DNA of 63,438 nt from Candidatus Kaiserbacteria bacterium (GCA_043770255.1 JAYVIL010000085.1:1-63438); one strand, 5' to 3'. Positions 6,837 through 41,172 are shown, counted from the first letter of the stretch. Translations and numbers: made by a program. Notes: a model not told the origin generated them from the letters alone.

Positions 6837-8384
6837 CTAATTAGGTGTCTGCTGTAGTTCGGCTAGCATTTTTTGCAACGTTTGCAATTGCAACATGAGG
6901 GCACTAATTTTGGCTTGCAGGGTGTCAACAGTTGCGCTATTTACTGTTTCCAGTAGACCCTCTGCTACATATCCATCGGTTCCGGTTGCAAAATTCACGG
7001 GTACCCAGGAACGATCATTAGCTCTGACACTCTTTCCGGTTTTGAAACCAATCGCTCCTTTGGGTTGAGTACCAATTTTTGTTCCGCCTGGTGTCAGTCG
7101 AACGTTTACGTTATCGGTGGTATACACCTTAACTGTAGAAATAGTACTAGTTGGAGTTGGAGTTGGAGTTGGAGTTGGGGTTGGGGTTGGGGTTGGGGTT
7201 GGGGTTACTTCAGCACTAACAACATATTTTACACTACGTGCTTTTGTATCGCCCGCTCCCACACAAGTCAGATTAAGGGTTTTGGTCCCAACAACAGTGG
7301 CTGGTATGACTTCGCTACCGCTAACTGTTTTTGAACCACTCCAAGCTCCCGTTGCCGAACAAGTAGTGGCATTAGTACTAGTCCAAGAAACTGTTACCGT
7401 TGAACCGACTGTTACCGAAGCAGGGGCAACAGAAATTGTAACTTGCGGAACGGGAGTTGGGGTTGGGGTTGGGGTTACACCACCGCCAGTCCAACAAACC
7501 TCGCGACTAGCATCCAGATCTAACTTCTTCTTCATCGACATAAATTTAAGTACATTTGCCTGTGGACAGAAACTAGTTGTAGCGACACTATATTCTGTTG
7601 TAAAAACTGGTTTACCGGCAGCAATAAAAGGTTTTAGGGTATCGCATTCTTTGTACTGAAAACACTGTTCATTAAGTGCCCAATCGAAATACGGCTCTAG
7701 TTCAACCACTTGATCAATATCATTTTTAAGACCAATCGAAAGATTGCGCGCATGGGCTTTCTCAGCCAGCCACTTATTATAGGTTATTTGATCTGCTCCA
7801 GTAAGCGGAAAATTTGTACTGTTTGTATATCCATCAATGTTATCTGGTTCAACACCATCACACCCTTTGGTCACGGCTAAATCCAAACGGGCCTCCATGA
7901 TTGGCCCTAGGGCTGATAAATTTCTAATATCGAGCCACCTCTCCCCGGCCCACCCATTTGTTTTACCGAGAACCGCTGCCGGAAATTGGGCCGCATCCGG
8001 TCGCCAATTTTCATATGAACCAGCTGAAAAATAACAGATTACTTTTTTACCCTTACCTTTTAGGGAAGTAATGGTCGCCGCTGGGGTATCAAAGAGATCA
8101 ATATCAAACATTTCTGCATCTACCATTTGATCAATGGTACCAGTGAGTTGCCACTGCCAGGTTGTATAGATGCCTGGCTTATACCAATTACCCGTACTCG
8201 CGCCGAGCACTGCACTTTTTGCATGATTCCTCTGATACTCAGTAATATCTCGTTGCAGTTGATCCACCGCTATTTGGACGTCATCCAGAGTCGCAGCCTG
8301 AGCAGGCAGGAAAAAACCAACCCCGGCGAGCAGTGCAAAGACCAGCGCCATAATAAATTTAAAGTTTGTGACAATTGATTTCAT
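6837..8384 (-). CDS. secreted glycoside hydrolase family 114-like protein (endo-alpha-1,4-polygalactosaminidase family) with PT linkers, Ig-like and SH3-like C-terminal domains
   Basis: Signal peptide MKSIVTNFKFIMALVFALLAGVGFFLPAQA. The core (WQWQL...VICYFSAGSYENWRPD...GERWLDIR...GCDGVEPDNIDGY...GLKND) matches what I recall of the GH114/TM1410-like fold. TPTPTP linkers are present. Confidence 0.65.
   Translation of the reverse strand: MKSIVTNFKFIMALVFALLAGVGFFLPAQAATLDDVQIAVDQLQRDITEYQRNHAKSAVLGASTGNWYKPGIYTTWQWQLTGTIDQMVDAEMFDIDLFDTPAATITSLKGKGKKVICYFSAGSYENWRPDAAQFPAAVLGKTNGWAGERWLDIRNLSALGPIMEARLDLAVTKGCDGVEPDNIDGYTNSTNFPLTGADQITYNKWLAEKAHARNLSIGLKNDIDQVVELEPYFDWALNEQCFQYKECDTLKPFIAAGKPVFTTEYSVATTSFCPQANVLKFMSMKKKLDLDASREVCWTGGGVTPTPTPTPVPQVTISVAPASVTVGSTVTVSWTSTNATTCSATGAWSGSKTVSGSEVIPATVVGTKTLNLTCVGAGDTKARSVKYVVSAEVTPTPTPTPTPTPTPTPTPTSTISTVKVYTTDNVNVRLTPGGTKIGTQPKGAIGFKTGKSVRANDRSWVPVNFATGTDGYVAEGLLETVNSATVDTLQAKISALMLQLQTLQKMLAELQQTPN
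7151..7206. repeat. hexanucleotide microsatellite (TTGGAG x4, TTGGGG x5) encoding a (PT)n linker
   Basis: Direct read of 7151-7206. A shorter GTTGGG run lies at 7454-7476. Confidence 0.85.
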
Positions 8385-8523
8385 ATTTTAATGTACTAAC
8401 TACACAACTGATATCATATTAATATCATAAAAGGTGCCCCCAAAGCAGGGGCACCTCTATTTACGTTTATTATATAACTTCGGTTCCTTTTTTATTTTTC
8501 TAACTGTTGATAACAAATCAAAA

Positions 8524-11276: not shown

Positions 11277-11552
11277 CTGAAATTTTTAAAACCGGCGATA
11301 ATTTGACGAAACGAATTATTTGTATCAGAACTTATTGTAAACTTGACACTATCTAAACCGAGGTATACACTACCTTCAGAGCTTCAGTACAGGTACCAGC
11401 CACAACCTACCGTTGTGGTATATATCTGGCTTTAGTTAGTGTTAATGATACATAATCTAAATCAACTGAAGTGTTCTTTGAAAAACTGAGGTGGGCATAC
11501 TGTGCCCACCTCTCTAAAAACCACCACTACAACCCTCATGAAAGGACATACG

Positions 11553-12383
11553 ATGAAAGTTCATCTCTTGGTTATCGACCCGCAAAACGACTTCATGGAT
11601 ATTCCGGGCGCAACGCTACCGGTGACCGGCGCCAACGCGGACATGGTCCGCTTGGCCTCGCTTGTCGACCGCATCGGCCACAAGCTCCAGAAGATTCACG
11701 TGACGCTCGACAGTCACCACTTGGTTGACATCGCGCATCCCGCCTTCTGGCGCGACAGTGGCGGCGCGTCGCCCAGCTCGCTTACCATGATTTCGGCTTC
11801 GGCCATCAAGGACGGCACCTGGACGCCGCGGCTGCCTGAACTCCGCACCTACGCTATCGGCTACGCCGAAGCACTCGAAGCGGCAGGCAAGTACACCCTC
11901 ATGGTGTGGCCGCCACACTGCCTCATTGGCAGTTGGGGTCACAACGTGCAGAGCGACTTGGCTTCTGCCTTCGATCGCTGGAGCCAGAAACGCGTGCGCA
12001 ACATCGACTTCGTCACCAAGGGAACCAACGTGCTCACCGAGCACTATGGCGCTCTCTTGGCCGAAGTACCGATCGCGAACGACCCTTCGACCCAGATGAA
12101 CGCACGCTTCCTTGCTATGTTGCAAGAAGCGGACGTGATCGTGGTCGCGGGCGAGGCATCGAGCCACTGCGTGAAAGCTACCATTGAACAGGTCGCCGAC
12201 AACATCGGGGCGGAGCATGTGAAGAAATTCCACCTGCTCACCGACTGCATGTCGCCGGTACCGGCGGTCGTGGCCCCTGACGGGACCATGATTGTCGACT
12301 TCCCCGGCGTGGCACAGCAGTTCCTCAGGGACATGGCCGCTCGCGGTATGACGCTTACGACCGCGGACCAGTTCCTGGCGTGA
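11553..12383 (+). CDS. isochorismatase-fold cysteine hydrolase, nicotinamidase-like
   Basis: MKVHLLVIDPQNDF (catalytic Asp), TLDSHH (metal site), VTKG (Lys) and GEASSHCV (Cys). The ATG at 11553 has an AAAGGA SD 6 nt upstream; the track start at 11502 is a GTG inside a hairpin. Confidence 0.7.
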   Translation: MKVHLLVIDPQNDFMDIPGATLPVTGANADMVRLASLVDRIGHKLQKIHVTLDSHHLVDIAHPAFWRDSGGASPSSLTMISASAIKDGTWTPRLPELRTYAIGYAEALEAAGKYTLMVWPPHCLIGSWGHNVQSDLASAFDRWSQKRVRNIDFVTKGTNVLTEHYGALLAEVPIANDPSTQMNARFLAMLQEADVIVVAGEASSHCVKATIEQVADNIGAEHVKKFHLLTDCMSPVPAVVAPDGTMIVDFPGVAQQFLRDMAARGMTLTTADQFLA

Positions 12384-12453
12384 GTCATGGGGGGCGGAAA
12401 CAAAGTTTCCGCCCCTACCATCACGAACCATCATGACATATAAGGAGAACATC

Positions 12454-13245
12454 ATGTCAGACATGCACGACTTCACTATCGGCAGCGGCTTCCAGTTCAG
12501 TGGAGCAACCATCGGCGGTCTTACCGCTGCGCAATACACGCTTGTCACTATCGCACTCGACGAATCAGGTTCGATCATCGGCAAGGAAAGCGAAATTCTC
12601 GACATGCTCTTGGCTGCCGTTGGTGCCTGCTTTAGCTCACCGTATGCCAACAACCTGCTCGTGCGAGTCGTACGCTTTGGTTCGCAGCACAACCGCCAGA
12701 ACGGCAACGGTGTTGATGAAATCCATGGGTTCAAAACCCTCCAGGAAATCGATACCAAGAGCTACCCCACCCTACGTGGCGGTGGCGCGACACCGCTTTG
12801 CGACGCAGTCTACTCGAGCGTCGGCGCTATGAATGCCTACGCACAGAGCCTCGTCGACATGGACTTCGCTGTCAACGGCATCACTTTCGTGGTGACCGAT
12901 GGTGGCGAAAACAGCTCGACCGCAACCATGAAGATGGTCAAGGACGAGCTAAAGAAGTCGGTCCTCGGTGAAGTGATGGAGTCACACGTATCGATCCTCA
13001 TTGGCATTGATACCACAGATGGTCAAGATGATACCAATTCGTGGGTCAAGCAAGCTCGTGCGCGGATCAAGCAGGAACTTGAAACGTTCCAAACCGAGGC
13101 CGGTATGGACCAGTTCATTTGGGCTGGTACGGTTACCAAAAGCAGTCTCGCCAAGCTGGCCGCCTTCGTCTCGCAGTCAATCAGCTCGACGTCGATGGCG
13201 CTCGGCACCGGTGGCCCGAGCCAGAATATCTCGGCCACCATTTAA
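12454..13245 (+). CDS. von Willebrand factor A (vWA) domain protein, TerY-like
   Basis: MIDAS-type motifs ALDESGSI, GGATPL and VVTDGGEN. The ATG at 12454 is preceded by AAGGAG. Confidence 0.8.
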   Translation: MSDMHDFTIGSGFQFSGATIGGLTAAQYTLVTIALDESGSIIGKESEILDMLLAAVGACFSSPYANNLLVRVVRFGSQHNRQNGNGVDEIHGFKTLQEIDTKSYPTLRGGGATPLCDAVYSSVGAMNAYAQSLVDMDFAVNGITFVVTDGGENSSTATMKMVKDELKKSVLGEVMESHVSILIGIDTTDGQDDTNSWVKQARARIKQELETFQTEAGMDQFIWAGTVTKSSLAKLAAFVSQSISSTSMALGTGGPSQNISATI

Positions 13246-13253
13246 AGATCCCA

Positions 13254-13283
13254 CGGGAGGCGCCAAGCGCCTCCCGTTTTTTT
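13254..13283 (+). terminator. strong intrinsic terminator between the vWA and PP2C genes
   Basis: CGGGAGGCGC-CAA-GCGCCTCCCG followed by TTTTTTT. Confidence 0.7.
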
Positions 13284-13313
13284 GTTCACACAAAGTCAGA
13301 AAAGGACTCCATC

Positions 13314-14201
13314 ATGAACCTCAGAACCGACCACACCTTCCAGATTGGCTGGCAACATTTGCAGACTGGAAAACCCTGCCAAGACTTTGCGCTCTCGGGC
13401 ACAATTGCCGATGACCTCGTCTACGCGATTGTCTCAGACGGCTGCTCATCTGGCGGGATGACCGACATTGGTGCGCGTCTCATGGTACTCGCTACCAAGC
13501 GCGCCATCCTCGAACACCTGCCCGTACCAGAAACAAAAGCTTGGTCTGACACTATAGATAAAATCTGTGCCACACGCGATTTGTATCTTGCGTCGTACCA
13601 GGCTGAGCTTGGTCTCGCACCCGTTGATCTCCTCGCGACTTGTCTGTTTGCTATTGGCACTCCCCAGTTCGTCATCGGACATGTGACGGGCGATGGTGTC
13701 GTGATTGCGATTCATGAATATGATTCCCTGGTGGAGGAGTTTTCTTGGAACAAGAACACACCCTACTACCCTGCCTATCGCCTCAGTGATCAAGACGAGG
13801 CATTCAAGCAGGTACACAGGGAAACGGTAGAACCGTTTTTAGATAGGTGTACTTGGATGCATATGCGTGGCATGGGCGGTGCGTACGAAGGTACGCTTGA
13901 AACCCATACTGCGGAAGAAGGCCTGGCAGGGAAAAAGTTCGCCTTTGCACACAGCGAGGGAAACGTCCATCCTGGTCGACTCATTGCGGTCGCCCTCATG
14001 ACCGACGGCGTCGAGCAAATCGGCGGCGTCGACACCATGGCTGCTGCCGAGGCATTCACTGCTTGGAAGAGCACTGAAGGTCAATTTGCAGTTCGGCGCA
14101 TGAATCGTTTTCTCTCAGAGGCGAAAAAAATCGGCAAGGGCCCACAAGATGATATTGCGCAAGCAGTCATCCACTTGGGCTTGCGCTCACCTAACCCCTA
14201 A
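13314..14201 (+). CDS. PP2C-family (PP2C_2-type) Ser/Thr phosphatase
   Basis: MNLRTDHTFQIGWQHLQTGKPCQDFA...VYAIVSDGCSSGGMTDIGARL...VTGDG...MTDGVEQ. The ATG at 13314 is preceded by AAAGGA, and the upstream part of the track ORF overlaps the vWA gene and the terminator. Confidence 0.75.
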   Translation: MNLRTDHTFQIGWQHLQTGKPCQDFALSGTIADDLVYAIVSDGCSSGGMTDIGARLMVLATKRAILEHLPVPETKAWSDTIDKICATRDLYLASYQAELGLAPVDLLATCLFAIGTPQFVIGHVTGDGVVIAIHEYDSLVEEFSWNKNTPYYPAYRLSDQDEAFKQVHRETVEPFLDRCTWMHMRGMGGAYEGTLETHTAEEGLAGKKFAFAHSEGNVHPGRLIAVALMTDGVEQIGGVDTMAAAEAFTAWKSTEGQFAVRRMNRFLSEAKKIGKGPQDDIAQAVIHLGLRSPNP

Positions 14202-14212
14202 CGGAGGACACT

Positions 14213-15943
14213 ATGTCACTCATTCAAATACCAACCAAGGTTATGCTTGAGGGCAAAGGTGCCCTCACGCTCAGACCAAATGATTATGTAACGCAAGGTG
14301 GTGAAGGCGCCATCTATCGCAAAGACAAACACATCATCAAGCTCTATCTTGACCCAACCAAAATGGTCAAAGATGGTATGTCTGAAAAAGTGCGGCTCTT
14401 GGCGAAGTCCTTCGCACATCCATCAATCGTGGCGCCCAAAGGGGTTGTCCACGATGAACACGGAATGCCACTGGGTTACTATATGCCGTATGTCTCAGGA
14501 GTTGCCTATCCAAAACTGTTTACCAATGATGGACGAGCTGAGGTTGGATTCACCGACGAATCGGCACGCCAACTAGCGTTCTCAATGCGGGCAGTCATAA
14601 CCGAAGCACACCATCAAGGAGCTCTGCTCGTTGATGGCAACGAACTCAACTGGCTCGCCGATATCACTAACCCAAAGCTGCCGGTGCCGTACGCTATCGA
14701 CGTTGATTCGTGGCAGATTGGTCGCTTTAAAGCTGCCGTTATCATGCCTTCGATTCGTGACTGGCATAGCGCTACGATTACATCTACTACCGACTGGTTT
14801 GCTTGGGGCATTGTGACCTTCTTACTGTTTACCGGCATCCACCCATACAAAGGGACATTGGCCGGATATAAACCGGGCGAGCTCGAACGTCGCATGCGTG
14901 ACAACGCGTCGATATTCAACCCTGGAGTTCGTCTCAACAAAACAGTGCGGGACCTGTCATGTATTCCCGCACCGCTACTTGATTGGTACCAAGCAACTTT
15001 TGCCCAGGGCCTACGGACCATACCCCCTTCACCACTAGAACTCGGGAAAGGGCCGTCGGTTGCCGGTCGCATCCTGAGGATGGTCACCAGCGGCACTGGT
15101 GGACTGGTGTATGAAAAAATCTTTGAGGCAAACTCCGCGATAGTTTCCATTTGGCCTTGTGGCCTGATGAGAACAAAACTCGGCGACCTCTTTGATTATG
15201 AACATAAACGTCAAGTAGGTGTCACAACAGCAGCCCAAATGGCTGCTGTGAAAAGTGGCCAGGGATGGCTTATGGCCGAACAAATTGGTAGTGAGTGGCA
15301 ATTTCGTTATCTCAGTGGTAACGGGCAGTCGGTACCACTGTCGACACTACTCAACGTGGAGACTGTGTTCCGAAGTGACAACCGACTATTTGCTGTCACC
15401 GATTGTGAACTGGTGGAGCTCGCAATACAACAGTTCGGAAAACCAATTCTCATACCCCAAAGACGATGGTCAATTATGGGAAATGCAACGAGCTGGTATC
15501 GTGGTGTTGGTATCGCCGATCTACTAGGGAGTATCCATCTTATTCTCCCGTCAGGGACTGACGGTATTACCCAAGTCAAAGTGCCCGAACTAAGTGGCGT
15601 ACGGGTGATTGGTGCAGTTGGACATGGTCGGTATGTAGAAGTCATGACAGTAACCCAAAATGGTAACTACGAAGCCCTCCAGTTTATGTTCACACACGAT
15701 CTCAAGTCATATCGTTTGACAACCGAGACACGTGATGACGCCGAACAAAACCTCGTGATCCTCCCCAAGGGGGTGGTCGCACAAATTACCAAAGACGGCG
15801 AGCTGAGTATCCTAGTCCCACAAACAGGAGAACAAAAGCTCGTGACCGACACCGACATCGCAACAACCATGCGACTAGGACACCAAGGCGACCGAGTGAT
15901 CTATCGGCACGAAAATACCGTCTGGTCACTGCGCATGCGCTAA
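14213..15943 (+). CDS. Hanks-type Ser/Thr protein kinase with ~290-aa uncharacterised C-terminal region
   Basis: Gly-loop GGEGAIYRK, Lys in HIIKLY, catalytic-loop-like LVDGNELN, DFG-equivalent IDVDSW, and DWFAWGIVTFLLFTGIHPY. SD is GGAGG. The start lies 12 nt after the PP2C stop. Confidence 0.75.
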   Translation: MSLIQIPTKVMLEGKGALTLRPNDYVTQGGEGAIYRKDKHIIKLYLDPTKMVKDGMSEKVRLLAKSFAHPSIVAPKGVVHDEHGMPLGYYMPYVSGVAYPKLFTNDGRAEVGFTDESARQLAFSMRAVITEAHHQGALLVDGNELNWLADITNPKLPVPYAIDVDSWQIGRFKAAVIMPSIRDWHSATITSTTDWFAWGIVTFLLFTGIHPYKGTLAGYKPGELERRMRDNASIFNPGVRLNKTVRDLSCIPAPLLDWYQATFAQGLRTIPPSPLELGKGPSVAGRILRMVTSGTGGLVYEKIFEANSAIVSIWPCGLMRTKLGDLFDYEHKRQVGVTTAAQMAAVKSGQGWLMAEQIGSEWQFRYLSGNGQSVPLSTLLNVETVFRSDNRLFAVTDCELVELAIQQFGKPILIPQRRWSIMGNATSWYRGVGIADLLGSIHLILPSGTDGITQVKVPELSGVRVIGAVGHGRYVEVMTVTQNGNYEALQFMFTHDLKSYRLTTETRDDAEQNLVILPKGVVAQITKDGELSILVPQTGEQKLVTDTDIATTMRLGHQGDRVIYRHENTVWSLRMR

Positions 15944-15957
15944 GGTACAACAACCTA

Positions 15958-15986
15958 CCGACCACATTCGTGTGGTCGGTTTTTTT
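15958..15986 (+). terminator. intrinsic terminator after the kinase gene
   Basis: CCGACCACA-TTCG-TGTGGTCGG followed by TTTTTTT. Confidence 0.7.
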
Positions 15987-16063
15987 ATTAGTGTATATTT
16001 GACACAATGAAGGTGGTTTGCTAGGGTAGGAATAGGCATGATCTTTTACTGAAAGGAACCGTC

Positions 16064-17077
16064 ATGACAACTCTCCTTGATCGCTGTATTGGCACCTTTG
16101 TTGGTGAGCATATTGGTGATTCGCTTGGTGCCCAATATGAAACATCGGGACCCAAAGCTATCGCGTTAGACTTGGACGCTCGCGGTGGACCTACTTTCTA
16201 TGACTATCCCAATACCCGGATGGAAAAGCCTGAGGAACACATACTTCCCGCCGGAATGCCCACCGATGACTCAGAACAAACGGCGTGCCTCGCCCTGAGT
16301 CTGATTGCGTGCAACGGACTTGATACGGAACACTTTTACAACCTTTTGCGCAGCAACGTCATTGATGAAAAGAGTGTACTTTGGTCAGGCAAATCAATCG
16401 GGGCCGGTGGCACAACTAAAAATGCGCTCAGTGGCGACCCAAAACGAATGGCACTCGCGCGTAATAACACAATTGGTACCAACGGCAGTTTGATGCGGGC
16501 CGCACCGATGGGACTGTGGTGGGCGACACGTATCCTTAATCTCGAGGATGAAGATATACGCATCGCGCAAGTAAATGAGGCCGAGGCAATGGTCTTTGCC
16601 ATGTCGGATGTCACCCATGCACACCAACATAGTAAAGATGCCTGCTGGCTCTACACGATAGTATTGGCAAACTTACTCGCGGGCAATGAACCAGATACAG
16701 CTCTCGACAACGCCGAATACACCGACCCCAGTCTTGCGAAAAGCAAATTGGCACAGCGGGTATTTCTCTCAGTCTATGACAGGGATCTCATACCCTACGA
16801 CCCAGGAGCCTTCCCGGCGCGAGGCACGGCAGAGTTCTCACTCTATGTAGCACTCTATTGTCTCAAACACGCCACCTCGTTTGCTCACGGTATCGAAATG
16901 GCTATCCGTGTTGGTGGCGACACCGATACTTATGCCGCAATAGCCGGCGGATTGCTCGGTGCCCATTACGGCTATGACGCTATCCCGAAGGCATGGCGAG
17001 ATACCATTCTCGGTCATGACGTTATGGTCGACCTCGCCACCCAGATGTACAACCGATTTGGTCCTGCAGTAACATAA
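16064..17077 (+). CDS. ADP-ribosylglycohydrolase family protein (DraG/ARH-like)
   Basis: GDSLGAQYE, MPTDDSEQT, GTNGSLMRAAPMG and VGGDTDTYAAIAGGLLGAHYG are family hallmarks. Confidence 0.85.
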   Translation: MTTLLDRCIGTFVGEHIGDSLGAQYETSGPKAIALDLDARGGPTFYDYPNTRMEKPEEHILPAGMPTDDSEQTACLALSLIACNGLDTEHFYNLLRSNVIDEKSVLWSGKSIGAGGTTKNALSGDPKRMALARNNTIGTNGSLMRAAPMGLWWATRILNLEDEDIRIAQVNEAEAMVFAMSDVTHAHQHSKDACWLYTIVLANLLAGNEPDTALDNAEYTDPSLAKSKLAQRVFLSVYDRDLIPYDPGAFPARGTAEFSLYVALYCLKHATSFAHGIEMAIRVGGDTDTYAAIAGGLLGAHYGYDAIPKAWRDTILGHDVMVDLATQMYNRFGPAVT

Positions 17078-17084
17078 ACATTCC

Positions 17085-17116
17085 CCGCCCGAGAGCATCA
17101 CTCTCGGGCGGTTTTA
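17085..17116 (+). terminator. intrinsic terminator after the ARH gene
   Basis: CCGCCCGAGAG-CATCA-CTCTCGGGCGG followed by TTTT. Confidence 0.7.
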
Positions 17117-17676: not shown

Positions 17677-19575
17677 TTACGACTGAGACAGGAGTTCTTT
17701 CTTCAGCTGCAAGTAGCGTTCCGTGTAGTACGGAGCCATGACCGACTCACGCCGGTCAAAGCCGAACGCTCGTTTCGAAACGAGAATGTTCGGAACACTC
17801 TGCACGCGTTTCTGTGGCGCTGCCCAGAACAAGTTCCAGCAGCGTTCGAGGTCGGCCACAAAGTCTGCTGCTGTCGGGAAGAGTATCGCCACTTTTCCTT
17901 CAGGCAGCAGCATGAGCTGTTCAAGGTCCCCCGTCAGATACCGTTTTAGGAACCACTCGGGATTCCGCCGGAACCCCACAACCGCATGTACCCAGGCATC
18001 GTGATAGCCGCGAACGAGATTGCCTTCCGCATCCACCCGACCATAGTCGAACGGGTCTTTGCGTGCGGCACCCACAGCCTGCGGACCGAGCTCATCCATC
18101 GGGTCAACGTCGATCGTTGCCTGAGGAATGACTTCGCGTCCATACTCCACCTTGTTTAGATGGTATGCCAGTTGATAGACCTCGCCCTTGAGAAGGTCGC
18201 CAATCGGAGCAATGCTGCCACGACCATCTCCATCACGAGTAAAGAATCCAAACGCCGTTTCCGACTTGTTGCCATTGCAGGTATAGATACCACCAATGAC
18301 CGTCGCATGAGCCGCGAGCACGCCCATCCGGGTGATCGCTTGCAGCGTTTTGAACTGCGCAGTACCAGGCAGAATGCCGTGACGTTTCGCCTTCAGATTG
18401 ACTTCGTCATTAATCGGCATCACCAGGTATTCAATACCGAGATTCTCGGCAAGTTCCTTGGCTGCATCACGTGTCTCGGCCGAGTTATAGTCACCATACG
18501 GCATGTTGATGCCGATGACGTTTTCTTCGCCGAGAACATGCACGAGGAGTGCAGCCACGACTGCCGAGTCAATACCACCAGAGAGGCCGATCACCACCGT
18601 GCGCATACGCGCTGGGATAGTAAGGAAGTAGCCCTGCAAACCAGATACGAGTCCGTCGCAGAGCTGCTTGATATCGAGAGCTTCTTCATACGGCACGGTG
18701 GGCATACCCGTCGACACAACGACATCTTGAACGCCAGCCCAGAACGGTTTGAGGTGCGACGCCACTTCTCCTTGCTCGTTGTAGATTGTTGACGATCCGT
18801 CGAACACGACTAAATTTTTGCCGTTGTTCTGAGGCATCACGTTGTTCACGTAGATGAACGGTACTTTCAGATAGGAAGCAAGACGACGCACATTACTGTG
18901 GCGAGCACGATTCTTTTGCCAACCCCACGGCGAGCTATTGATACTTATCAGTATATCGATGCCGTGAGCAACCAGTTCTTTGATTGGCTTCACAGAATAA
19001 TCAGCATCCCACATATCTTCACAGATAATGGCTCCGAGCCGCAACACTTCGCTGCGAATCGTGACATCAAACGGTTGCAGAATCGCTTCGAGCAATTCTT
19101 TCCGTTCAATCGCCATCTTCACCAAGGACAGGAAATGTCGTTCATCGTCGAACATGCGATATTTCGGCATGAGGGTTTTGACGAAAAACGGTAGGTCAGC
19201 GCGATTGCGCAGAACCGTACCATTTTGTGCCACGATGCCGGCATTCAGTTTCCGCAGACGGCCGTCTTCACCCAAGGCACCTTCGCGATCAATCGCGTAG
19301 GAGCCAAAGATAACCACCATCTCCGAACCCTTGGTCGCCGCTACAAAGCGGTCATTCCAGTACCAGACGTCGCGAACGAATGATTCGTCCTCAGCTTCGT
19401 CGCCAATCAGGTATCCCGGTACACAGAGTTCCGGGAAAATGAGGATGTCGACGCCACGAGCTTTCGCCCGAGCAATTTCATCCATCATCCACGTCGCGTT
19501 CGCACGGGGATTTCCCGCCACGACGGGCATCTGCGCGAGCGCAGTACGAAGTCCTTTTTGCATAAGTGTTTTCAT
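17677..19575 (-). CDS. nadE: glutamine-dependent NAD+ synthetase (nitrilase-like domain + PP-loop synthetase domain)
   Basis: N-terminal CN-hydrolase motifs (ILIFPELCVPGY, GAIICEDMW) and a C-terminal SGGIDS PP-loop. 632 aa. Confidence 0.9.
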   Translation of the reverse strand: MKTLMQKGLRTALAQMPVVAGNPRANATWMMDEIARAKARGVDILIFPELCVPGYLIGDEAEDESFVRDVWYWNDRFVAATKGSEMVVIFGSYAIDREGALGEDGRLRKLNAGIVAQNGTVLRNRADLPFFVKTLMPKYRMFDDERHFLSLVKMAIERKELLEAILQPFDVTIRSEVLRLGAIICEDMWDADYSVKPIKELVAHGIDILISINSSPWGWQKNRARHSNVRRLASYLKVPFIYVNNVMPQNNGKNLVVFDGSSTIYNEQGEVASHLKPFWAGVQDVVVSTGMPTVPYEEALDIKQLCDGLVSGLQGYFLTIPARMRTVVIGLSGGIDSAVVAALLVHVLGEENVIGINMPYGDYNSAETRDAAKELAENLGIEYLVMPINDEVNLKAKRHGILPGTAQFKTLQAITRMGVLAAHATVIGGIYTCNGNKSETAFGFFTRDGDGRGSIAPIGDLLKGEVYQLAYHLNKVEYGREVIPQATIDVDPMDELGPQAVGAARKDPFDYGRVDAEGNLVRGYHDAWVHAVVGFRRNPEWFLKRYLTGDLEQLMLLPEGKVAILFPTAADFVADLERCWNLFWAAPQKRVQSVPNILVSKRAFGFDRRESVMAPYYTERYLQLKKELLSQS

Positions 19576-19638: not shown

Positions 19639-20973
19639 TTACACAATCGTCGCCTGGGTGACGTCACCAGCAGTTCCAAACAAACGGATGTATCGATCAA
19701 TTTCTTTTTGACTGATGCCGGTATGTTTATTCGGATTGTCGGACAACTTCACTGTTGGACGACCGTTCGCTTCAATGACTTTAATGACCATCGAGATAGT
19801 ATGGAAACCGGTCTCGGGTGGCATGATGCCATTGATTTGGTTGGTCGCCATTGTGCCATACCCGAACGTGAGCACGCCCACGTCACGAGCATACGTTTCG
19901 TAGGTTTTCACCATTCGAGCGGCATCGAGTCCATCGGATGGAATAAAGATCTTTTGTTTCGGATCGACACCATGACGTTTGAACCATTCAATTCCTTCCG
20001 GAATTGCGAGAGGTTCGGGCTTAGAGTCGATCCGTATACCGAGGGTATCATACACCAACTGATCGGACGCGCCGGCAAAAAATGCCGACGTACCGAACGT
20101 GTCAGGTAACAAAATCGCCATTTCCGGATAATACTTATACCAGCGCTCGACCACATCATAAGGTGAACGTTTAATCCACTCGTCTGAGTTGTCGCCGAGA
20201 GTCCCCCAAACCATGGGCAACTCGTGTGCATTCGTTCCCTTCGGGTTGTTTTGACCCATCTTGAAAGCGAGCCACACGTTCGAGGGTGGAAGACACTGCC
20301 CAGGCAGACGCTCTTGATACAGCTCTTGTATCATCACTTCAATCAGTCGCGAGTGGCGGCGGCGATGCCCGAATTGGGACAGAGTCAGTCCTGGACACCC
20401 TTTGAGCAGTACACAATCCCTGATCTGGCGTAGATACATTTCCGCGTAGAATGAACTGAACGCTGAGGATGAATCAATGCCTTTCCATAAAAACCAATAG
20501 TACAGCTCGGAGATAATCGCCATCGCAGGAGTTTCCCAGAACATGACTGACAGCCACGAACCGGTAAACCTTAGATCAATCTCGCCATTAGGCAGATACT
20601 GCAAAGTATAATCTGGCAGGTCTCGCCTACGTAATTCATTGAGATACTCGAACTCAAACATATGGCGCGTTACGCCAAATTTATTTGTAATCGTCATGCC
20701 ACCAAGTTGTGACAGTTCAGTTTCGCTAAACTTCAGTTTCTTCAACGCATCAAGCTGTGCTCGGAGAGCAGCTTCGGGAATGACTCTGCCTAGCTTCAAC
20801 CCTTTAGTGCGGATTTTGAGTGCAAAGGTCACCTTCACATCAGCGTGACCCTCTGCCCAAATAAATTGCCCCATTGGGAATTTATAGATGTCACAGTCGA
20901 GACGTGACGTAATGATTGCCCCACCATCACTGTTGGCGAGGGCAAAGATACGGTGCTGCGGAATAAACGACAT
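19639..20973 (-). CDS. pncB: nicotinate phosphoribosyltransferase family protein
   Basis: 444 aa with DCDIYKFPMGQ, FGHRRRHS, KGTNAHE and LLPDTFGT motifs typical of the NAPRTase family. Confidence 0.8.
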   Translation of the reverse strand: MSFIPQHRIFALANSDGGAIITSRLDCDIYKFPMGQFIWAEGHADVKVTFALKIRTKGLKLGRVIPEAALRAQLDALKKLKFSETELSQLGGMTITNKFGVTRHMFEFEYLNELRRRDLPDYTLQYLPNGEIDLRFTGSWLSVMFWETPAMAIISELYYWFLWKGIDSSSAFSSFYAEMYLRQIRDCVLLKGCPGLTLSQFGHRRRHSRLIEVMIQELYQERLPGQCLPPSNVWLAFKMGQNNPKGTNAHELPMVWGTLGDNSDEWIKRSPYDVVERWYKYYPEMAILLPDTFGTSAFFAGASDQLVYDTLGIRIDSKPEPLAIPEGIEWFKRHGVDPKQKIFIPSDGLDAARMVKTYETYARDVGVLTFGYGTMATNQINGIMPPETGFHTISMVIKVIEANGRPTVKLSDNPNKHTGISQKEIDRYIRLFGTAGDVTQATIV

Positions 20974-21109: not shown

Positions 21110-21769
21110 TCAGTCATACAAACCATACTTCTTAATGTACTGATACGAATCACTCGACAAATGGAGTGGGCGAGTACCGCTCCTTAACGCTTCACGAATA
21201 GCAGTAGAGGACGCGGGATGTGTTTCAGATTCAAGGAAACACCAAGTTCCCGGTACTGCCTTGAAGTCTCTCAACGCTACCCGTGTGTGGGCGAATCGAC
21301 GGGCGGCTTCCGAAGTAAGAGCAGCCTCATTTACACCAGACCTTCCAAACACCCCAACTGGATACTTTTCCATGATTTCTGTCCACCGATCGCCCCACGT
21401 ATGGAGTCCCGCCAGATTATCAGAACCCATGAGCCAAACTAGTTGCAGCTGCGGATACGCATTACTGAAATGTTCAAGAACAACTGCTGTCGCACTCGAC
21501 ACTCCCAGCTGATGCAAGACTACTTCAAACTCGCTTACCTTAATCTTTGAACCAAGTAACCCACTCTTGCGAGTAGCAGTGTGTGCCAGGTGAAGCCTAT
21601 GCGCCACAGGTGCTAATTGATACGCTGTCTTGGCAGTACTTTGCGGGGTGACCATGAGCCAAACTTCGTCGAGCGATAGTTTGGTCAGCGCTTGCTTCAA
21701 CACCTCGATATGGCCTTGGTGCGCCGGATCAACCGACGCACCAAGAATTCCTACTGTTCGCTTTTTCAT
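21110..21769 (-). CDS. nadD: nicotinate-nucleotide adenylyltransferase
   Basis: GILGASVDPAHQGH (the (H/T)xGH motif). The ATG at 21769 overlaps the upstream stop as ATGA; the track start at 21781 is a GTG. Confidence 0.85.
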   Translation of the reverse strand: MKKRTVGILGASVDPAHQGHIEVLKQALTKLSLDEVWLMVTPQSTAKTAYQLAPVAHRLHLAHTATRKSGLLGSKIKVSEFEVVLHQLGVSSATAVVLEHFSNAYPQLQLVWLMGSDNLAGLHTWGDRWTEIMEKYPVGVFGRSGVNEAALTSEAARRFAHTRVALRDFKAVPGTWCFLESETHPASSTAIREALRSGTRPLHLSSDSYQYIKKYGLYD

Positions 21770-22422
21770 GTGGCACCCCACAATTTACCTTGCTGATGAT
21801 GCCAGGCAATCATAGCGATGGCTCTTAGTTCATGATAGTGATAAAACGCAGCAACGTTAACGGACTCGCCATTGCACGTAAGCTGTACCCCTGTTTCTGG
21901 TTGCATACGTGACAGGTCAGTAGAGAACGTCATGATGACTTCTCGTAATGCGCCACTACGCTCATCACTTCCGTCGAGCGTTGAAATCGCTTCCCACTCA
22001 GCATCGGTTACACACAATGCCGAGAAGTTGGTGGCATGCACCATCGATTCATCACCGGTATGCACATGCAAAGCCGCAATTGGTTGAGCCCTGTTTAGAA
22101 ACTCCTCCAACGTAATGACCGAGGCAAATTTCAGATTTTCCTCATCAACTTCGCGATATGCTTCAGACGCAGTTTCCACCATGGTACGCAGCGGGGTATT
22201 CAAAAGCTGTCCAGCTTCGACAAACCCCCCACCAGTAATCCCAAAGCCTTCACCCACAACCGCACTGCGAACTGAGAGCAATAAGCGAATCCTGGTTGCA
22301 TTGAGTACTTGGCACGCAATCACACCGGCACCTGAACCCACGAGCTTGTAATGCTGTGTGTTCTTCATTTTTCCGAAACGTAACTCAAAGAGCCATTTCG
22401 CGAAGACGTCGATCGTTTTCAT
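21766..22422 (-). CDS. hypothetical protein with a degenerate Nudix-like box, translationally coupled to nadD
   Basis: The ATG at 22422 is preceded by AAGGAG. GGGFVEAG...ASEAYREVDEE resembles a split Nudix box (REVxEE), and the stop overlaps the nadD start. The function call is weak. Confidence 0.45.
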   Translation of the reverse strand: MKTIDVFAKWLFELRFGKMKNTQHYKLVGSGAGVIACQVLNATRIRLLLSVRSAVVGEGFGITGGGFVEAGQLLNTPLRTMVETASEAYREVDEENLKFASVITLEEFLNRAQPIAALHVHTGDESMVHATNFSALCVTDAEWEAISTLDGSDERSGALREVIMTFSTDLSRMQPETGVQLTCNGESVNVAAFYHYHELRAIAMIAWHHQQGKLWGAT

Positions 22423-22516
22423 TTTATTCTCCTTAAAGAGCCAAGAACAAGTTGTCCGTAAAATACAACCATTGTTGCATTGCGTCAATCAGTTCGAGAC
22501 CCGGGTTTCAAAGATC

Positions 22517-22547
22517 ATATACACGTTACTTTGTGTATATCTTACAC
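22517..22547. promoter_or_regulatory. inverted-repeat operator candidate upstream of the Nudix-like/nadD/pncB/nadE genes
   Basis: ATATACAC-N8-GTGTATAT (22517-22540) overlaps GTGTA-N5-TACAC (22533-22547). It lies 95-125 nt upstream of the 22422 start. Confidence 0.35.
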
Positions 22548-22616
22548 TATCCTATACTAACCAGTACTTCGTGTCAACTGTAAACGGTCTTAGGCGAGTG
22601 ATTAACAAAGACATAA

Positions 22617-22660: not shown

Positions 22661-23545
22661 CTATAGCGCAAACCCTTTTTTCTCTTGCAACGCTCGTGCA
22701 AATGCTGCAGGACCAAACGTCACCAATAAGAACGGTGTTGCTGCTGCGTGCACCCGGAAGGTAGCCCCGGCCTCAATCACTCCACTTGAAGGGGTAACCT
22801 TACGGCCATCAATGAGCAGCTGGACTCCTACACTGTCCTTAAACTGAAGTGGACGAATGTCGATGCTACCACCTTTCTCTAACTCATCGAGTACGAGAGG
22901 TCGGGTACTCAGTCTGTAGGGACTTATCGGCGTCAACGCAACATGACGCGATGTAGGTACAATTATCGGTCCTCCATGACTGACGTTTTGTGCGGTAGAA
23001 CCAGTTGCTGTCGCAACCAGGACACTACGAGCCATCAATTCTTCAGGGCCGTAGAAATTAGTGCCGCCTACCTCAACCCGAAACGCGATTTGTGTTTCGA
23101 GATGTTCAACAACGACCTCATTTGCAGCCGGTCCAAAAGATTCAGCAACCACATCAGTACCTTCAAGTACATAGTCAACCATGAGTGCAATACGTTCTTC
23201 CACGAGATACGCGCGCGACACAAGCCGAGTGAGTGCATTCTTCCAGGTATCTGCTTCAGCACTAGCCAGAAAACCAACATTGCCACCATTAATCCCGAAC
23301 GTTGGAATACCATACGGCGAGTACTTCTTCATTACCCGCATAATGCTACCGTCGCCCCCAACCGCAATCACCATGCTGGGTTTGTACTCCGGCACATCAA
23401 TATCAGTAGAGAGATGCGCGACTGCACCAAGTAGTGCTAAGTGTGATTTAACTTCATGAGCGATTAACTGCGCCTTGGCGTAATCAACGCCCTCGGCAGC
23501 CACTACGAGGAACTTTTTAAGCAACCCTTTGGTGTGAGTGTCCAT
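22661..23545 (-). CDS. nadK: NAD+ kinase
   Basis: VIAVGGDGSIMR (the GGDG motif) and the size and architecture of the PpnK/NadK family. Confidence 0.85.
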   Translation of the reverse strand: MDTHTKGLLKKFLVVAAEGVDYAKAQLIAHEVKSHLALLGAVAHLSTDIDVPEYKPSMVIAVGGDGSIMRVMKKYSPYGIPTFGINGGNVGFLASAEADTWKNALTRLVSRAYLVEERIALMVDYVLEGTDVVAESFGPAANEVVVEHLETQIAFRVEVGGTNFYGPEELMARSVLVATATGSTAQNVSHGGPIIVPTSRHVALTPISPYRLSTRPLVLDELEKGGSIDIRPLQFKDSVGVQLLIDGRKVTPSSGVIEAGATFRVHAAATPFLLVTFGPAAFARALQEKKGFAL

Positions 23546-23597
23546 TGTATGTATCCTTAAATTGCAAAGATCATCTATAACCAGAGTACACCACCTA

Positions 23598-23616
23598 GTG
23601 TAATTATCAATTACAC
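23598..23616. promoter_or_regulatory. palindromic operator candidate upstream of nadK
   Basis: GTGTAATT-ATC-AATTACAC has perfect 8-bp arms. It overlaps a -35-like TTACAC on the minus strand, with TATAGA about 18 nt downstream. Confidence 0.35.
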
Positions 23617-23917
23617 ACTATCATCGCTCTAACGTTTATACAGCTGTTTGAATATCACCTTTTGGAAAGCTGCCGGCTGCGCATTTTCAATTATCATTAC
23701 GTGCTCTTGGGTAATATCAATAAATGACACTCGGTCGCCAAAGACAAACTGAATGATGTTTTGATCAAATCTATCAGCATCAGCTGGAATACAGCGAATA
23801 AATCGTTCGAGGCTTTTTTGTTTTTGAGAGCTAGAAAGGGGCTGTGAAATCAAGCGTGAGAATTTTGAACCCTGCAATGTTTTGGTTGGAGCCGACCGTG
23901 ATCCACAAGGAGATCAA

Positions 23918-25863: not shown

Positions 25864-26535
25864 TTAGATAATTGGAGATAGTTCTACTAGTTTTTTAGAA
25901 ACAAATGTATACAAAGCGGCCGGACGATTTTGGACACCTTCTTGCATTTTACCTGTCTCTTTTAGGCAATTAAGGGCGAGGATTTTTTTACGAAAATTTC
26001 TTTTATCAAGTGTTGTTCCTAAAATGACTTCGTACACACTTTGTAACTCAGTCAGTGTAAATGTCGGTGGTAGTAGGAATTGGGCCACCGTCGTATACGC
26101 CAGTTTGCCTCGCAAACGGGCAATAGCCATATCAAACATACTGCCATGATCGTAGGCTAACTTTTTTATACTACCCACCGGCAGCCATCGGACTGAATCA
26201 TTGGTGAATGCGGTAATAATCGACGGTTCAACACAACCGACATACCCCACTGATATCACACGGTTGCGCTTATCTCGTTCCAAGGCACTAAAAGTATATA
26301 GTTGTTCGAGGTAGACTTTTTTTAAAGTAGCTTTATCAGCCAAATGCCGTACTACTGCCTCTTCAGCTGTTTCACTTTTATCAATCAAACCGCCGGGGAA
26401 ACCAGGTATGTTTATGTAGTGAGGCGGACGATTTACATTTTGTACCAACACATGAAGTTTCTTGTTTTGAATCCCAAAAATTACTGCGTCAACTGCCATG
26501 GCGGCAAAGCGTAGCTCAATAGGTGCTTGTTTCAT
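25864..26535 (-). CDS. nrtR: NrtR-family Nudix-related transcriptional regulator of NAD metabolism
   Basis: A Nudix-like N-domain (FPGGLIDKSETAEEAVVRHLADK) plus a C-terminal wHTH signature (LAYDHGSMFDMAIARLRGKLAYTT...FTLTELQSVYEVILGTTLDKRNFRKK...RPAALYTF). The ATG at 26535 is preferred. Confidence 0.85.
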   Translation of the reverse strand: MKQAPIELRFAAMAVDAVIFGIQNKKLHVLVQNVNRPPHYINIPGFPGGLIDKSETAEEAVVRHLADKATLKKVYLEQLYTFSALERDKRNRVISVGYVGCVEPSIITAFTNDSVRWLPVGSIKKLAYDHGSMFDMAIARLRGKLAYTTVAQFLLPPTFTLTELQSVYEVILGTTLDKRNFRKKILALNCLKETGKMQEGVQNRPAALYTFVSKKLVELSPII

Positions 26536-26596
26536 AGAATAAAATAATACTACACTTATCACAAAACGGGTACTCTGTTTGATTCTATACCGCTAT

Positions 26597-39991: not shown

Positions 39992-40382
39992 ATATACCAT
40001 AATATACATTATAGTATTATTGTCAAATTTAAGCCATGCCTAGGTGACGCCCAGGCGGTGCTTTCTTATTTCATACCCTACCCTCCTTTTGGCTTCTTAA
40101 CCATTTGTGTACCGCGATTTTTGACCACGCCTTCCATCCGCGACGCAACCCGTCGAGGCATTGGCTGATTATGTGGAATATTTTTTCCGTTCGGATTTAT
40201 ATTCATATATCTATATATTTGAGAGTACCCCCAAGATTAAACTATTAAAAATAAATAATTGAAGACCTATAGTCTTTCACCTACTATGCCGTAGTACATA
40301 CATTTAGCTTACGAAAACCTTGAGTAAATTGAATATCTGTATATTTGTCGTTTTGCCTAGAAGAGTCCTAGTCTGAGCTTCA

Positions 40383-40643: not shown

Positions 40644-40651
40644 GAAGCTTA

Positions 40652-40870: not shown

Positions 40871-40980
40871 AAGATGTATGTTATTTACTATAATATAGTA
40901 CTAAATTGTAGTAATAATGCAAGCACTCTACTTTACTAAAAAATGACTTTGCCTAGGAGAGTCCTAGGCGGAGCTTTCGC

Positions 40981-41032: not shown

Positions 41033-41052
41033 TACCTAGGCGTTGCCTCGGC

Positions 41053-41105: not shown

Positions 41106-41172
41106 TCTTCGTACAAAAATGACCCTTTTGGGTCATTTTTTGAGCTCTCATATGTTACGGTACGAGCTAGGC

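Follow-up and report, generated by a model that had tools for sequence, protein, structure and literature searches.

A PncA-like/vWA/PP2C/kinase cassette within a predicted NrtR-controlled NAD-salvage regulon of Candidatus Kaiserbacteria

The window analysed here, a 63,438-nucleotide stretch of a Candidatus Kaiserbacteria genome (GCA_043770255.1, JAYVIL010000085.1:1-63438), carries five plus-strand genes proposed in an earlier note made from the sequence alone, all of which are present at the positions given there. They encode a PncA-like putative nicotinamidase (PncAL, 276 aa; 11553..12383), a vWA protein (263 aa; 12454..13245), a PP2C_2-type Ser/Thr phosphatase (295 aa; 13314..14201), a YegI-type Hanks Ser/Thr kinase (14213..15943) with a kinase domain at residues 1-270, and an ADP-ribosylglycohydrolase of the DraG/ARH family (ARH; 16064..17077). 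The vWA gene likely starts at the ATG at 12454, which has AAGGAG upstream and at which an identical 263-aa database protein also starts. Further along, the minus strand encodes NadE (17677-19575), PncB/NAPRTase (19639-20973), a NadD-like adenylyltransferase (21110-21781), and NAD kinase (22661..23545), all assigned by Pfam, together with a conserved 240-aa protein (21766-22488) and an NrtR repressor (25864..26562) that combines a Nudix domain with the NrtR winged helix (NUDIX, 2e-9; PF21906, 3.9e-26). The adenylyltransferase and the 240-aa protein recur at loci L014 and L005, and in the related genome of L014 the same gene order is kept from the cassette through NrtR.

The description of the first protein as a nicotinamidase-like hydrolase rests on nicotinamidases being its only sequence relatives in the PDB (3.7e-5 as a single sequence, 1.2e-6 as a profile) and on its retained catalytic residues, while its score against the Isochorismatase model stays below threshold (PF00857; E 0.004, 17.7 bits vs a cut-off of 27), as does NCBIfam PRK11609 (23.3 bits vs a threshold of 174). 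Residues D9, K156, and C206 are invariant across the family and align with the catalytic triad of Pnc1 and other nicotinamidases, and the equally invariant metal site (D53 and H55 in TLDSHH, H122 in WPPHC) aligns to the DWH and WPVHC motifs of Pnc1. No other cassette gene is as well conserved as that of PncAL. The protein exceeds PncA by ~60-80 residues, including an insertion of ~60 residues, and has additional invariant His and Trp residues. Its substrate is probably nicotinamide.

The vWA protein and the kinase had to be identified from structure and profiles, as neither was picked up by Pfam, NCBIfam, or PADLOC; taken as single sequences, they also have no match in PDB sequences. Of the three families named for the triad, only the phosphatase was recovered by a direct family model (PP2C_2, PF13672; 6.2e-19). 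In Foldseek, an AF2 model of the vWA protein (pLDDT 83) retrieves vWA domains and nothing else (E ~1e-8), and the MIDAS residues of the protein (D36-x-[S/T]-G-S40, T113, D149) are invariant among homologues, bearing out the intact MIDAS described earlier. Its Ser/Thr-rich C-terminal tail, a Q/N/S-rich sequence of the form SQSxSSQSQ...SQN, is almost invariant, with the motif present in 92 of 106 homologues, phage copies included, and retained even where overall identity is 34-42%. For the kinase, the family profile matches Ser/Thr kinases in the PDB at 6.6e-5, and the kinase domain aligns with that of E. coli YegI in hhalign (97.6% probability, E 3.5e-12); with an invariant G-loop GGEG, K43, D141-x4-N146, D163/D165, and DWFxWG, this Hanks-type enzyme is catalytically complete. 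Its C-terminal region of ~290 aa, previously left uncharacterised, is predicted to form an all-beta, propeller-like domain (residues 287-576; AF2, pLDDT 89), and the best Foldseek matches of the protein are LRRK2 (kinase plus WD40), which spans both domains, and BamB. The kinase family comprises 758 representatives at 50% identity, nearly all of about 560-600 aa.

Sampled across genomes, the unit is a four-gene cassette in which PncAL is an obligate fourth member, and not a triad. At genomic loci with at least 3.6 kb of upstream DNA, PncAL, vWA, PP2C, and kinase occur in constant order in 72/72 cases (57/57 labelled Patescibacteria, 15/15 other). All four genes are also found in this order in 24 of 25 IMG/VR contigs and in a prophage-like region of Bradyrhizobium, and two curated huge phages keep the order with inserts between the genes; the cassette occurs sporadically in several phyla. 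The ARH proved to be a different matter: its identity is firm (ADP_ribosyl_GH, PF03747; 3.6e-50), as is its position 3′ of the triad, but it adjoins the cassette in only 7 of 82 loci, and in the window it makes up a transcription unit by itself, with a predicted operator (15988..16008, TTAGTGTATATTTGACACAAT) and terminators of its own, including one at 17085-17111. The proposed association of the triad with both flanking hydrolases therefore stands for PncAL and not for ARH, which is best read as a lineage-specific member of the predicted NrtR regulon.

Beyond the core, the commonest neighbours of the cassette are PncB (39 loci), NrtR (38), NadE (26), NMNAT (16), NadK (11), Prs (8), and a PnuC-like protein (5). 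Among Patescibacteria loci with 8 kb on either side, 29 of 33 contain an NAD gene; at one locus, L075, the Nudix, NAPRTase, and NadE genes lie nearby and were missed by tblastn. PncB is encoded directly 3′ of the kinase at 17 loci (16 Patescibacteria-labelled, one other). Of the 40 loci flanked by 8 kb on either side, 25 have NrtR no more than 10 kb away, and NrtR lies immediately 5′ of PncAL in 22 loci. Defence genes are absent from the recurrent neighbours. NAD genes were not found near the Bradyrhizobium copy or some phage copies, and PncB is not within 10 kb of most phage copies, although several IMG/VR contigs encode PncB, NadE, or NrtR near the cassette.

Predicted regulatory sequences also link the cassette with these neighbours. 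A 21-bp palindrome (TTAGTGTA-N5-TACACTAA, core GT-N7-AC) occurs with three or fewer mismatches 5′ of PncAL in 42 of 77 upstream regions, compared with 0.2% of shuffles; in the remaining 35 of 77 loci no box was found within 300 bp 5′ of PncAL. The published NrtR account (PMC2330246) describes an operator of the same 21-bp symmetry and GT-N7-AC core, and the box upstream of the cassette is a likely NrtR binding site. Across 1.48 Mb there are 100 such boxes, including 35 that lie 5′ of PncAL, 12 of PncB, 8 of NrtR, 5 of NMNAT-like, 5 of PnuC-like, and 4 of NadE genes. The window contains four palindrome sites against 0.26 expected. The predicted operator of the cassette (TTATTGTAAACTTGACACTAT, 11332..11352; three mismatches) overlaps the -35 hexamer of a plus-strand sigma-70-like promoter (11343..11371; TTGACA-17-TACACT, 10/12 consensus matches), an arrangement found also at L014, and same-class boxes overlap TTGACA in relatives as well. 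A second, degenerate operator-like palindrome, recognised by reading the sequence, follows at 11436..11456 (TTAGTGTTAATGATACATAAT, four mismatches), and close relatives have a good box at the equivalent position. A further predicted operator (22530..22550, two mismatches) lies 5′ of the operon that comprises the genes for the 240-aa protein, NadD, PncB, and NadE.

Within the cassette, a terminator-like hairpin with a T-run in the vWA/PP2C gap (13253..13277, plus strand) divides the operon into a PncA-like/vWA half and a PP2C/kinase half. Such elements occur between vWA and PP2C in 57 of 76 loci, compared with 7/76 for the PncAL/vWA gap and 6/76 for shuffled sequence. The PP2C and kinase genes abut or overlap in 56 of 76 loci, and in 50 of 76 the kinase gene has a terminator-like site after it, corresponding in the window to the intrinsic terminator that ends the operon (15957..15980, plus strand).

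The block was also described as GC-rich and rich in Shine-Dalgarno (SD) sequences, which was taken to suggest horizontal acquisition. GC content of the block is indeed 0.53 against 0.45 elsewhere, and in 11.5-23.5 kb 8 of 11 genes have an SD-like motif in front of them, compared with about 5-7 of 43 elsewhere; since both signals extend across the NAD genes as far as about 23.5 kb, the compositional claim is correct but not specific to the triad. The conclusion drawn from it is not supported: among 74 loci sampled from many hosts, 96% show higher GC in the cassette than in the flanks, and gene order is conserved at L014. High GC is best read as a family-wide trait, and not as evidence of recent transfer.

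We put the probability at about 0.5 that the cassette is an NrtR-controlled, phospho-gated nicotinamidase module in an ADP-ribose-responsive NAD-salvage regulon. With an obligate PncAL and an NrtR-type operator on one operon, it looks like a regulated entry step of NAD recycling and not like a phage-defence island, and the coupling to NAD metabolism suggested earlier is tighter than was proposed. In such a module, NAD consumption would raise ADP-ribose and release NrtR from the promoter-overlapping operator, and the PncA-like enzyme would convert nicotinamide to nicotinate, supplying PncB, then NadD, then NadE. The kinase, with its beta-propeller as sensor, and the PP2C phosphatase would reversibly phosphorylate the vWA protein on its Ser/Thr-rich tail, the candidate phospho-acceptor. 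The vWA protein, co-expressed with the nicotinamidase 5′ of the internal terminator, may in turn regulate it, gating either its activity or salvage flux post-translationally. A bolder version, which we hold only tentatively, is that a hitherto unrecognised, widely mobile four-gene module, in which the propeller-sensor kinase and PP2C toggle the vWA tail to switch a dedicated nicotinamidase, has been wired to NrtR in Patescibacteria and serves NAD reconstitution in jumbo phages. If true, bacterial NAD salvage would have its entry step under a post-translational (phospho) gate, the first of its kind, and these phages would carry a fourth NAD-reconstitution pathway, by the deamidated route, against NAD-depleting immunity.

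Among the alternatives, the one that survives best, although unlikely, is that PncAL acts on another amide (NMN, nicotinamide riboside, NAD, or Gln/Asn of the vWA tail), with an output other than free nicotinate. A canonical PncA shares the gene string in 10 of 85 loci, directly 3′ of the kinase in five of these, so PncAL may not be a plain nicotinamidase; its insertion, extra invariant residues, sub-threshold scores against PncA models, and strict coupling to a vWA protein with a Gln- and Asn-containing tail point the same way. Against this, PncAL keeps every catalytic-triad residue and metal ligand of nicotinamidases, and its PDB sequence relatives are all nicotinamidases. The neighbour met most often is PncB, an enzyme that requires nicotinate, and usually no other PncA accompanies it (a canonical PncA is missing from the surrounding 10 kb at 32 of the 39 PncB-bearing loci).

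The genes might instead form a TerY-P-type anti-phage system, in which the switch would sense infection and the PncA-like enzyme, with ARH, would alter nicotinamide, NAD, or ADP-ribose, blocking the phage or potentiating NADase effectors. The homology to the yegL/pphC/yegI triad claimed in the earlier note stands: besides the YegI match, the PP2C and vWA proteins show weak but collinear matches, and TerY-P-like triads have been reported as defence modules (PMC11090510). The mobility of the cassette and its composition unlike the flanks also favour a defensive role. The recurrent neighbours, by comparison, are all NAD-salvage genes, the operon bears a metabolic, NrtR-type operator, gene order is shared with related genomes, and the predicted propeller replaces the zinc ribbon or OB fold expected of the kinase. 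No toxic effector is encoded, as the note itself had observed, and PADLOC-DB v2 returned no match to any of six proteins at E <= 0.01, in a library whose TerY-P models were not confirmed by a positive control. A defence system is unlikely, and slightly less probable than the use of another amide.

Lower again, at a slim chance, we place a phage-type NAD-reconstitution or counter-defence module that recycles NADase-released nicotinamide through the deamidated route and was adopted by Patescibacteria. Carriage by the IMG/VR contigs and the two huge phages, the NAD genes near several of the former, and the precedent of phage NAD-restoring pathways (NARP1-3; PMC13464706) speak for it, but the window cassette sits in a chromosomal, syntenic NAD regulon, some "viral" IMG/VR contigs may be misclassified Patescibacteria, most phage copies have no PncB within 10 kb, and the need for the triad is left unexplained; such an origin is, moreover, compatible with an NrtR-controlled nicotinamidase module and does not exclude it. 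That a signalling triad merely happens to lie beside an NAD cluster with no functional link, conceivable from the window by itself, is hardly credible and is contradicted by the neighbourhood statistics: PncAL stays with the triad in 72/72 loci, and NAD genes and operator recur across phyla.

Compared with known systems, the cassette shares with TerY-P and yegL-pphC-yegI the three families and their vWA-PP2C-kinase order. YegL aligns weakly with the cassette vWA protein through its MIDAS motifs and, at the C-terminus, a Ser-rich helix, and PphC has the PCQD and DG motifs in common with the cassette phosphatase. Only the cassette adds an obligate PncA-like gene and an NrtR-type operator, and its neighbours are NAD genes, unlike the Ter or restriction genes of TerY-P. 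The kinase C-termini also differ: a cytosolic propeller is predicted here; YegI, by contrast, is a membrane protein (10.1101/819920), and the kinases of TerY-P end in a zinc ribbon (classic) or an OB fold (defence version) (PMC11090510). The predicted two-domain layout resembles that of kinases with a beta-propeller sensor such as LRRK2, with no sequence relation beyond the kinase fold and without the other LRRK2 domains.

With NrtR salvage pathway I (pncA-pncB, nadD, nadE) of Rodionov et al. 2008, the locus has in common the NrtR gene, the 21-bp GT-N7-AC operator and its overlap with the promoter, and pncB, nadD, nadE, and nadK as targets. The cassette nicotinamidase differs in being divergent, longer, below PncA model cut-offs, and always transcribed with the vWA/PP2C/kinase switch, which is not among the NrtR regulons in the searched passages of PMC2330246. 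A connection between NrtR and draG, on the other hand, is already known from Streptomyces. The NARP pathways, in which NARP1 recycles ADP-ribose, NARP2 uses nicotinamide via NMN, and NARP3 combines a PnuC-like transporter with a NadR-like enzyme (PMC13464706), are likewise carried by large phages and rebuild NAD, and some phage cassettes lie near PncB or NadE. NARPs use neither a nicotinamidase nor the kinase/phosphatase/vWA set, and their defining gene families are absent from the cassette. Finally, Iyer et al. (2022) proposed that NrtR/WYL-regulated, ARG-centred systems reverse viral ADP-ribosylation; these resemble the window in combining a Nudix-type transcription factor with an ADP-ribosylglycohydrolase, to which phosphatases and a vWA "chaperone" are sometimes added. 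Those systems are without a PncA-like enzyme, PP2C, and Ser/Thr kinase, whereas the cassette locus can do without ARH and has its vWA protein as part of a kinase triad.

Five co-oriented genes occupy 11.3–17.1 kb of the window. Pfam searches identified a PP2C phosphatase of 295 aa (13314–14201, +; PP2C_2, 6e-19) and an ADP-ribosylglycohydrolase of 337 aa (ARH; 16064–17077, +; ADP_ribosyl_GH, 3.6e-50), and gave a sub-threshold Isochorismatase match to the first ORF, which encodes a divergent PncA-like protein of 276 aa (PncAL; 11553–12383, +). Searches of Pfam, NCBIfam, PADLOC and PDB sequences returned nothing useful for a 263-aa protein (12454–13245, +) and a 576-aa protein (14213–15943, +), NCBIfam and PADLOC added no identification for any protein of the block, and comparison of PncAL, the 263-aa protein, PP2C and the 576-aa protein with PHROGs gave marginal matches only. 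PncAL matched PDB nicotinamidases at 3.7e-5 alone and 1.2e-6 as a profile, and its homologues share an invariant Asp-Lys-Cys triad (D9, K156, C206) and an Asp/His/His metal site (D53, H55, H122). The family profile of the 263-aa ORF failed to match the PDB, and its assignment as a vWA fold is made from the AlphaFold2 model only (pLDDT 83), whose PDB matches were exclusively vWA domains (E ~1e-8), including ITIH1, Rpn10, integrin I domains and vWF A1. Its MIDAS residues D36-x-[S/T]-G-S40, T113 and D149 are invariant among homologues.

The family profile of the 576-aa protein matched eukaryotic-like Ser/Thr kinases in the PDB (6.6e-5) and the kinase domain of E. coli YegI (97.6% probability, E 3.5e-12), with an invariant glycine loop, K43, D141-x4-N146, D163/D165 and DWFxWG. 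In the model (pLDDT 89), the kinase domain is joined through a brief disordered linker to a domain that is all-beta (residues 287–576). Since the best structural matches of this region are LRRK2 (kinase plus WD40) and BamB, the C-terminus is likely a beta-propeller-like sensor domain, giving a predicted fold to a region that had been left as uncharacterised. The motif reading in the earlier note was correct, as all five proteins were resolved by Pfam, profiles or AlphaFold2 models.

The closest named homologues of the three proteins queried are from Patescibacteria (Kaiser-, Nomura-, Lloyd-, Moraniibacteria and others). A kinase-profile scan of one genome per GTDB species recovered 91 confirmed relatives, and the 80 loci kept are mostly from Patescibacteria, with sporadic carriers among Bradyrhizobium, Micavibrio, Bdellovibrionales, Methylococcaceae, Rickettsiales, Thermosynechococcus, Agitococcus and Desulfobacterales. 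Among loci with at least 3.6 kb of upstream DNA, the order PncAL-vWA-PP2C-kinase and its spacing are constant in 57/57 Patescibacteria-labelled and 15/15 other loci, and the sole exceptions are loci truncated by a contig end. The proposal of a vWA/PP2C/kinase triad thus held for the three genes and their order but not for the unit, as the PncA-like gene recurs beside the triad in unrelated genomes and is a fourth member in 72/72 loci. PncAL is the most conserved protein of this cassette, with a mean identity to the window proteins of 58%, compared with 52% for vWA, 37% for PP2C and 44% for the kinase. The window PncAL shares 59% identity with a protein of Bradyrhizobium embrapense, where the whole cassette lies in a prophage-like region (DUF3799, DnaA_C, DUF5131, Dam, RNase_T) without NAD genes. 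The four genes were also found in order in 24/25 IMG/VR contigs recovered with the kinase profile (viral by IMG/VR label) and, with inserted genes between them, in the curated huge phages LR745208 and LR756511. A few kb downstream of its cassette kinase, the latter has another Pkinase-domain protein, a canonical one (523 aa, 5.7e-52; locus L090, 21846–23417). The kinase family is compact, with little variation in length: its 758 representatives (50% identity level, E <= 1e-30, from 1.84 billion proteins) are nearly all about 560–600 aa.

Unbiased clustering of all ORFs from 85 loci uncovered recurrent genes of NAD salvage near the cassette, namely PncB (39 loci), the ADP-ribose-responsive repressor NrtR (38), NadE (26), NMNAT/NadD (16), NadK (11), Prs (8), canonical PncA (8, +2) and a PnuC-like gene (5), along with ARH (7). 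No recurrent restriction, abortive-infection or other defence family was found among the clustered ORFs of these loci. At least one NAD gene is present in 29/33 Patescibacteria loci with 8 kb on both sides, and tblastn underestimates this linkage; in locus L075, for instance, the Nudix, NAPRTase and NadE genes that follow the cassette are too divergent for detection. NrtR lies directly upstream of the PncAL gene in 22 loci (17 Patescibacteria-labelled and five others, including Agitococcus and Desulfobacterales), while PncB lies directly 3′ of the kinase in 17. The possibility that PncAL simply replaces PncA is weakened by the 10/85 loci that carry both, in five of which canonical PncA directly follows the kinase; PncAL may therefore have a substrate or role distinct from that of canonical PncA.

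Other genes also recur in these neighbourhoods. A nucleoside 2-deoxyribosyltransferase-like gene (PF15891) was found near the cassette in a huge phage (locus L089, 18717–19934) and in five Patescibacteria loci (including L023, 11860–13014). In the window, a 549-aa protein with a central SAM-methyltransferase domain (24125–25774, −) is encoded directly downstream of NrtR (25864–26562), and has homologues near the cassette in loci L041, L066, L074 and L083. A 240-aa protein without a Pfam match (21766–22488, −), whose gene opens the NadD-PncB-NadE operon downstream of an NrtR box, recurs in the related genome L014 and in locus L005 and is a candidate NAD-metabolism gene.

A 21-bp palindrome, TTAGTGTA-N5-TACACTAA, is common to close relatives and lies upstream of their PncAL gene. 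Its 21-bp symmetry and GT-N7-AC core are those published for NrtR sites (PMC2330246). Sites with at most 3 mismatches over 16 positions are found within 300 bp upstream of PncAL in 42/77 loci, relative to 0.2% of shuffles, and the mismatch distribution is bimodal. In the 1.48 Mb that the loci cover, the 100 sites with at most 2 mismatches precede PncAL (35), PncB (12), NrtR (8), NMNAT-like (5), PnuC-like (5) and NadE (4) genes, as well as NadD, NadK, Prs and PncA, a predicted distribution that is typical of an NrtR regulon. The cassette is the commonest predicted NrtR target in the examined loci, which had been picked around it. The window contains four sites where 0.26 are expected: at 11332–11352, overlapping the −35 hexamer of a TTGACA-17-TACACT promoter; at 15988–16008, before ARH; at 22530–22550, before the operon of the 240-aa protein, NadD, PncB and NadE; and at 8388–8408 (TTAATGTACTAACTACACAAC, 3 mismatches), directly upstream of a GH114 glycosidase gene. 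We infer that NrtR binds the predicted sites, of which the last may be either a chance occurrence or an unexpected regulon member. The GH114 glycoside hydrolase (6837–8384, −) is secreted, with PT-rich linkers. Another palindrome, TAGTGTAATTATCAATTACACACTA (23596–23620), about 50 nt upstream of the NAD kinase gene, has NrtR-box-like half-sites at a longer spacing.

The predicted NrtR regulon is set apart from the rest of the window by GC content and translation signals. The block is indeed richer in GC than its surroundings, as the earlier note had reported, but the rise is not confined to it and runs on through NadE, PncB, NadD and NadK. Likewise, SD-like motifs (AGGA, GGAG, GGAGG) are enriched, although across the whole predicted regulon (8/11 genes at 11.5–23.5 kb vs. 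about 5–7/43 other window genes) and not only in the triad block. The view of the GC-rich island as a sign of recent transfer did not survive: cassette GC exceeds that of the flanks in 96% of 74 loci (median difference +4.4 points), and L014 has the same gene order as the window (cassette, ARH, small membrane protein, NadE, PncB, NadD, 240-aa protein, NadK, NrtR). High GC is therefore a family trait and no proof of recent acquisition here. ARH, considered as a possible component of the cassette, accompanies the cassette in only 7/82 loci and has its own operator and terminator; it is a lineage-specific regulon member outside the cassette. An NrtR-draG link is already known in Streptomyces (PMC2330246). 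Elsewhere in the window, a low-GC patch (0.36) spans 40000–42000.

Within the cassette, a strong terminator-like hairpin with a T-run (13253–13277) separates the vWA and PP2C genes, and a further terminator-like hairpin (15957–15980) follows the kinase. The internal element is present in 57/76 loci, compared with 7/76 for the PncAL|vWA gap and 6/76 for shuffled controls, and in 56/76 the PP2C gene overlaps the kinase gene or directly adjoins it. GC3 drops along the operon from PncAL to the kinase (0.79, 0.68, 0.57, 0.50), and most loci follow the order PncAL > vWA > PP2C ~ kinase. Together, the internal terminator, the PP2C/kinase overlap and the fall in GC3 therefore suggest two expression tiers, with nicotinamidase and vWA made in quantity and phosphatase and kinase made at a lower level by read-through, an arrangement compatible with an enzyme and a stoichiometric partner that is modified by a catalytic pair. 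A 380-aa antisense ORF (11616–12758, −) across the PncAL and vWA genes is an artefact of the high GC3 there; it exceeds either real gene in length, and a gene caller that favours the longest ORF would be misled by it.

Between the NrtR box and the PncAL start, close relatives (L001, L008–L012, L014, L015 and L073) contain a structured leader of ~90 nt, in which a long hairpin (GGTGGCGCG...CGCTCCACC) and a second hairpin (CCTCAnCGGAAGGnTGAGG) are followed by TGTTCTTTGAAAA. Compensatory changes are present in 12/18 predicted pairs, and the leader looks like an attenuator or riboswitch-type element. Rfam returned no match for the leader and no known riboswitch or other RNA, apart from tRNAs, in the window, leader or seven related loci; over the 63-kb window no family reached threshold, not even tRNA. 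The window leader keeps only GTTCTTTGAAAAA (11473–11485), at the same −79 distance from the ATG, and the hairpin after it (11488–11512) is not that of the relatives. Neither a −35 element nor a terminator T-tract fits the conserved GTTCTTTGAAAA (about −79) in all loci.

The best-conserved part of the vWA protein is its tail, the last ~30 residues, with the pattern F[VI]S-x-S[IV]SSQSQ-x-LG[TS]GG[PA]S...[TL][TI][IF]-COOH. This motif is found in 92/106 homologues, including phage copies of 34–42% overall identity. The C-terminus of E. coli YegL can be aligned to the Ser-rich helix of the tail, whose end is disordered in the model. The tail is the most evident candidate for a phospho-acceptor or docking peptide. 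ADP-ribose is the known signal of NrtR regulons. In the mechanism we propose, NAD consumption would produce ADP-ribose and nicotinamide; ADP-ribose would release NrtR, and PncAL would convert nicotinamide to nicotinate for PncB, NadD and NadE. How far the vWA tail is phosphorylated would be decided by PP2C and by the kinase, with the propeller as its sensor, and the nicotinamidase would be gated by the vWA protein. A function of the cassette in nicotinamide/NAD salvage is probable, while the specific wiring from kinase and PP2C through the vWA tail to the nicotinamidase is a tentative proposal; for the explanation as a whole, salvage with a phospho-gate, we estimate a probability of roughly 0.5.

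Triads of vWA, PP2C and kinase (TerY-P, Yeg) are widespread, and to our knowledge none has a known output or substrate. Here the triad is tied to one enzyme of predictable reaction, a concrete and assayable partner, and the vWA tail offers a candidate phospho-acceptor. In addition, the presence of the cassette in huge phages points to a possible new route of NAD-restoring counter-defence. The literature searched contained no description of the four-gene cassette or of a nicotinamidase with vWA, PP2C and kinase, nor of the triad-nicotinamidase link, its NrtR targeting or the phage route. Homology places the triad with TerY-P/Yeg. Unlike TerY-P, whose kinase C-terminus is a zinc ribbon or OB domain (PMC11090510), the cassette kinase lacks such a C-terminus, the PADLOC defence models do not recognise the cassette, and its loci have no defence or Ter neighbourhood. 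It is also none of NARP1, NARP2 or NARP3, nor the ARG-centred NrtR/WYL system (Iyer et al. 2022). A vWA/PP2C/kinase switch is not listed in the searched passages of the original NrtR regulon paper (PMC2330246). By its predicted genes and sites, the cassette would function as a pncA-pncB salvage operon under NrtR control does, except that its nicotinamidase is divergent and a switch has been added.
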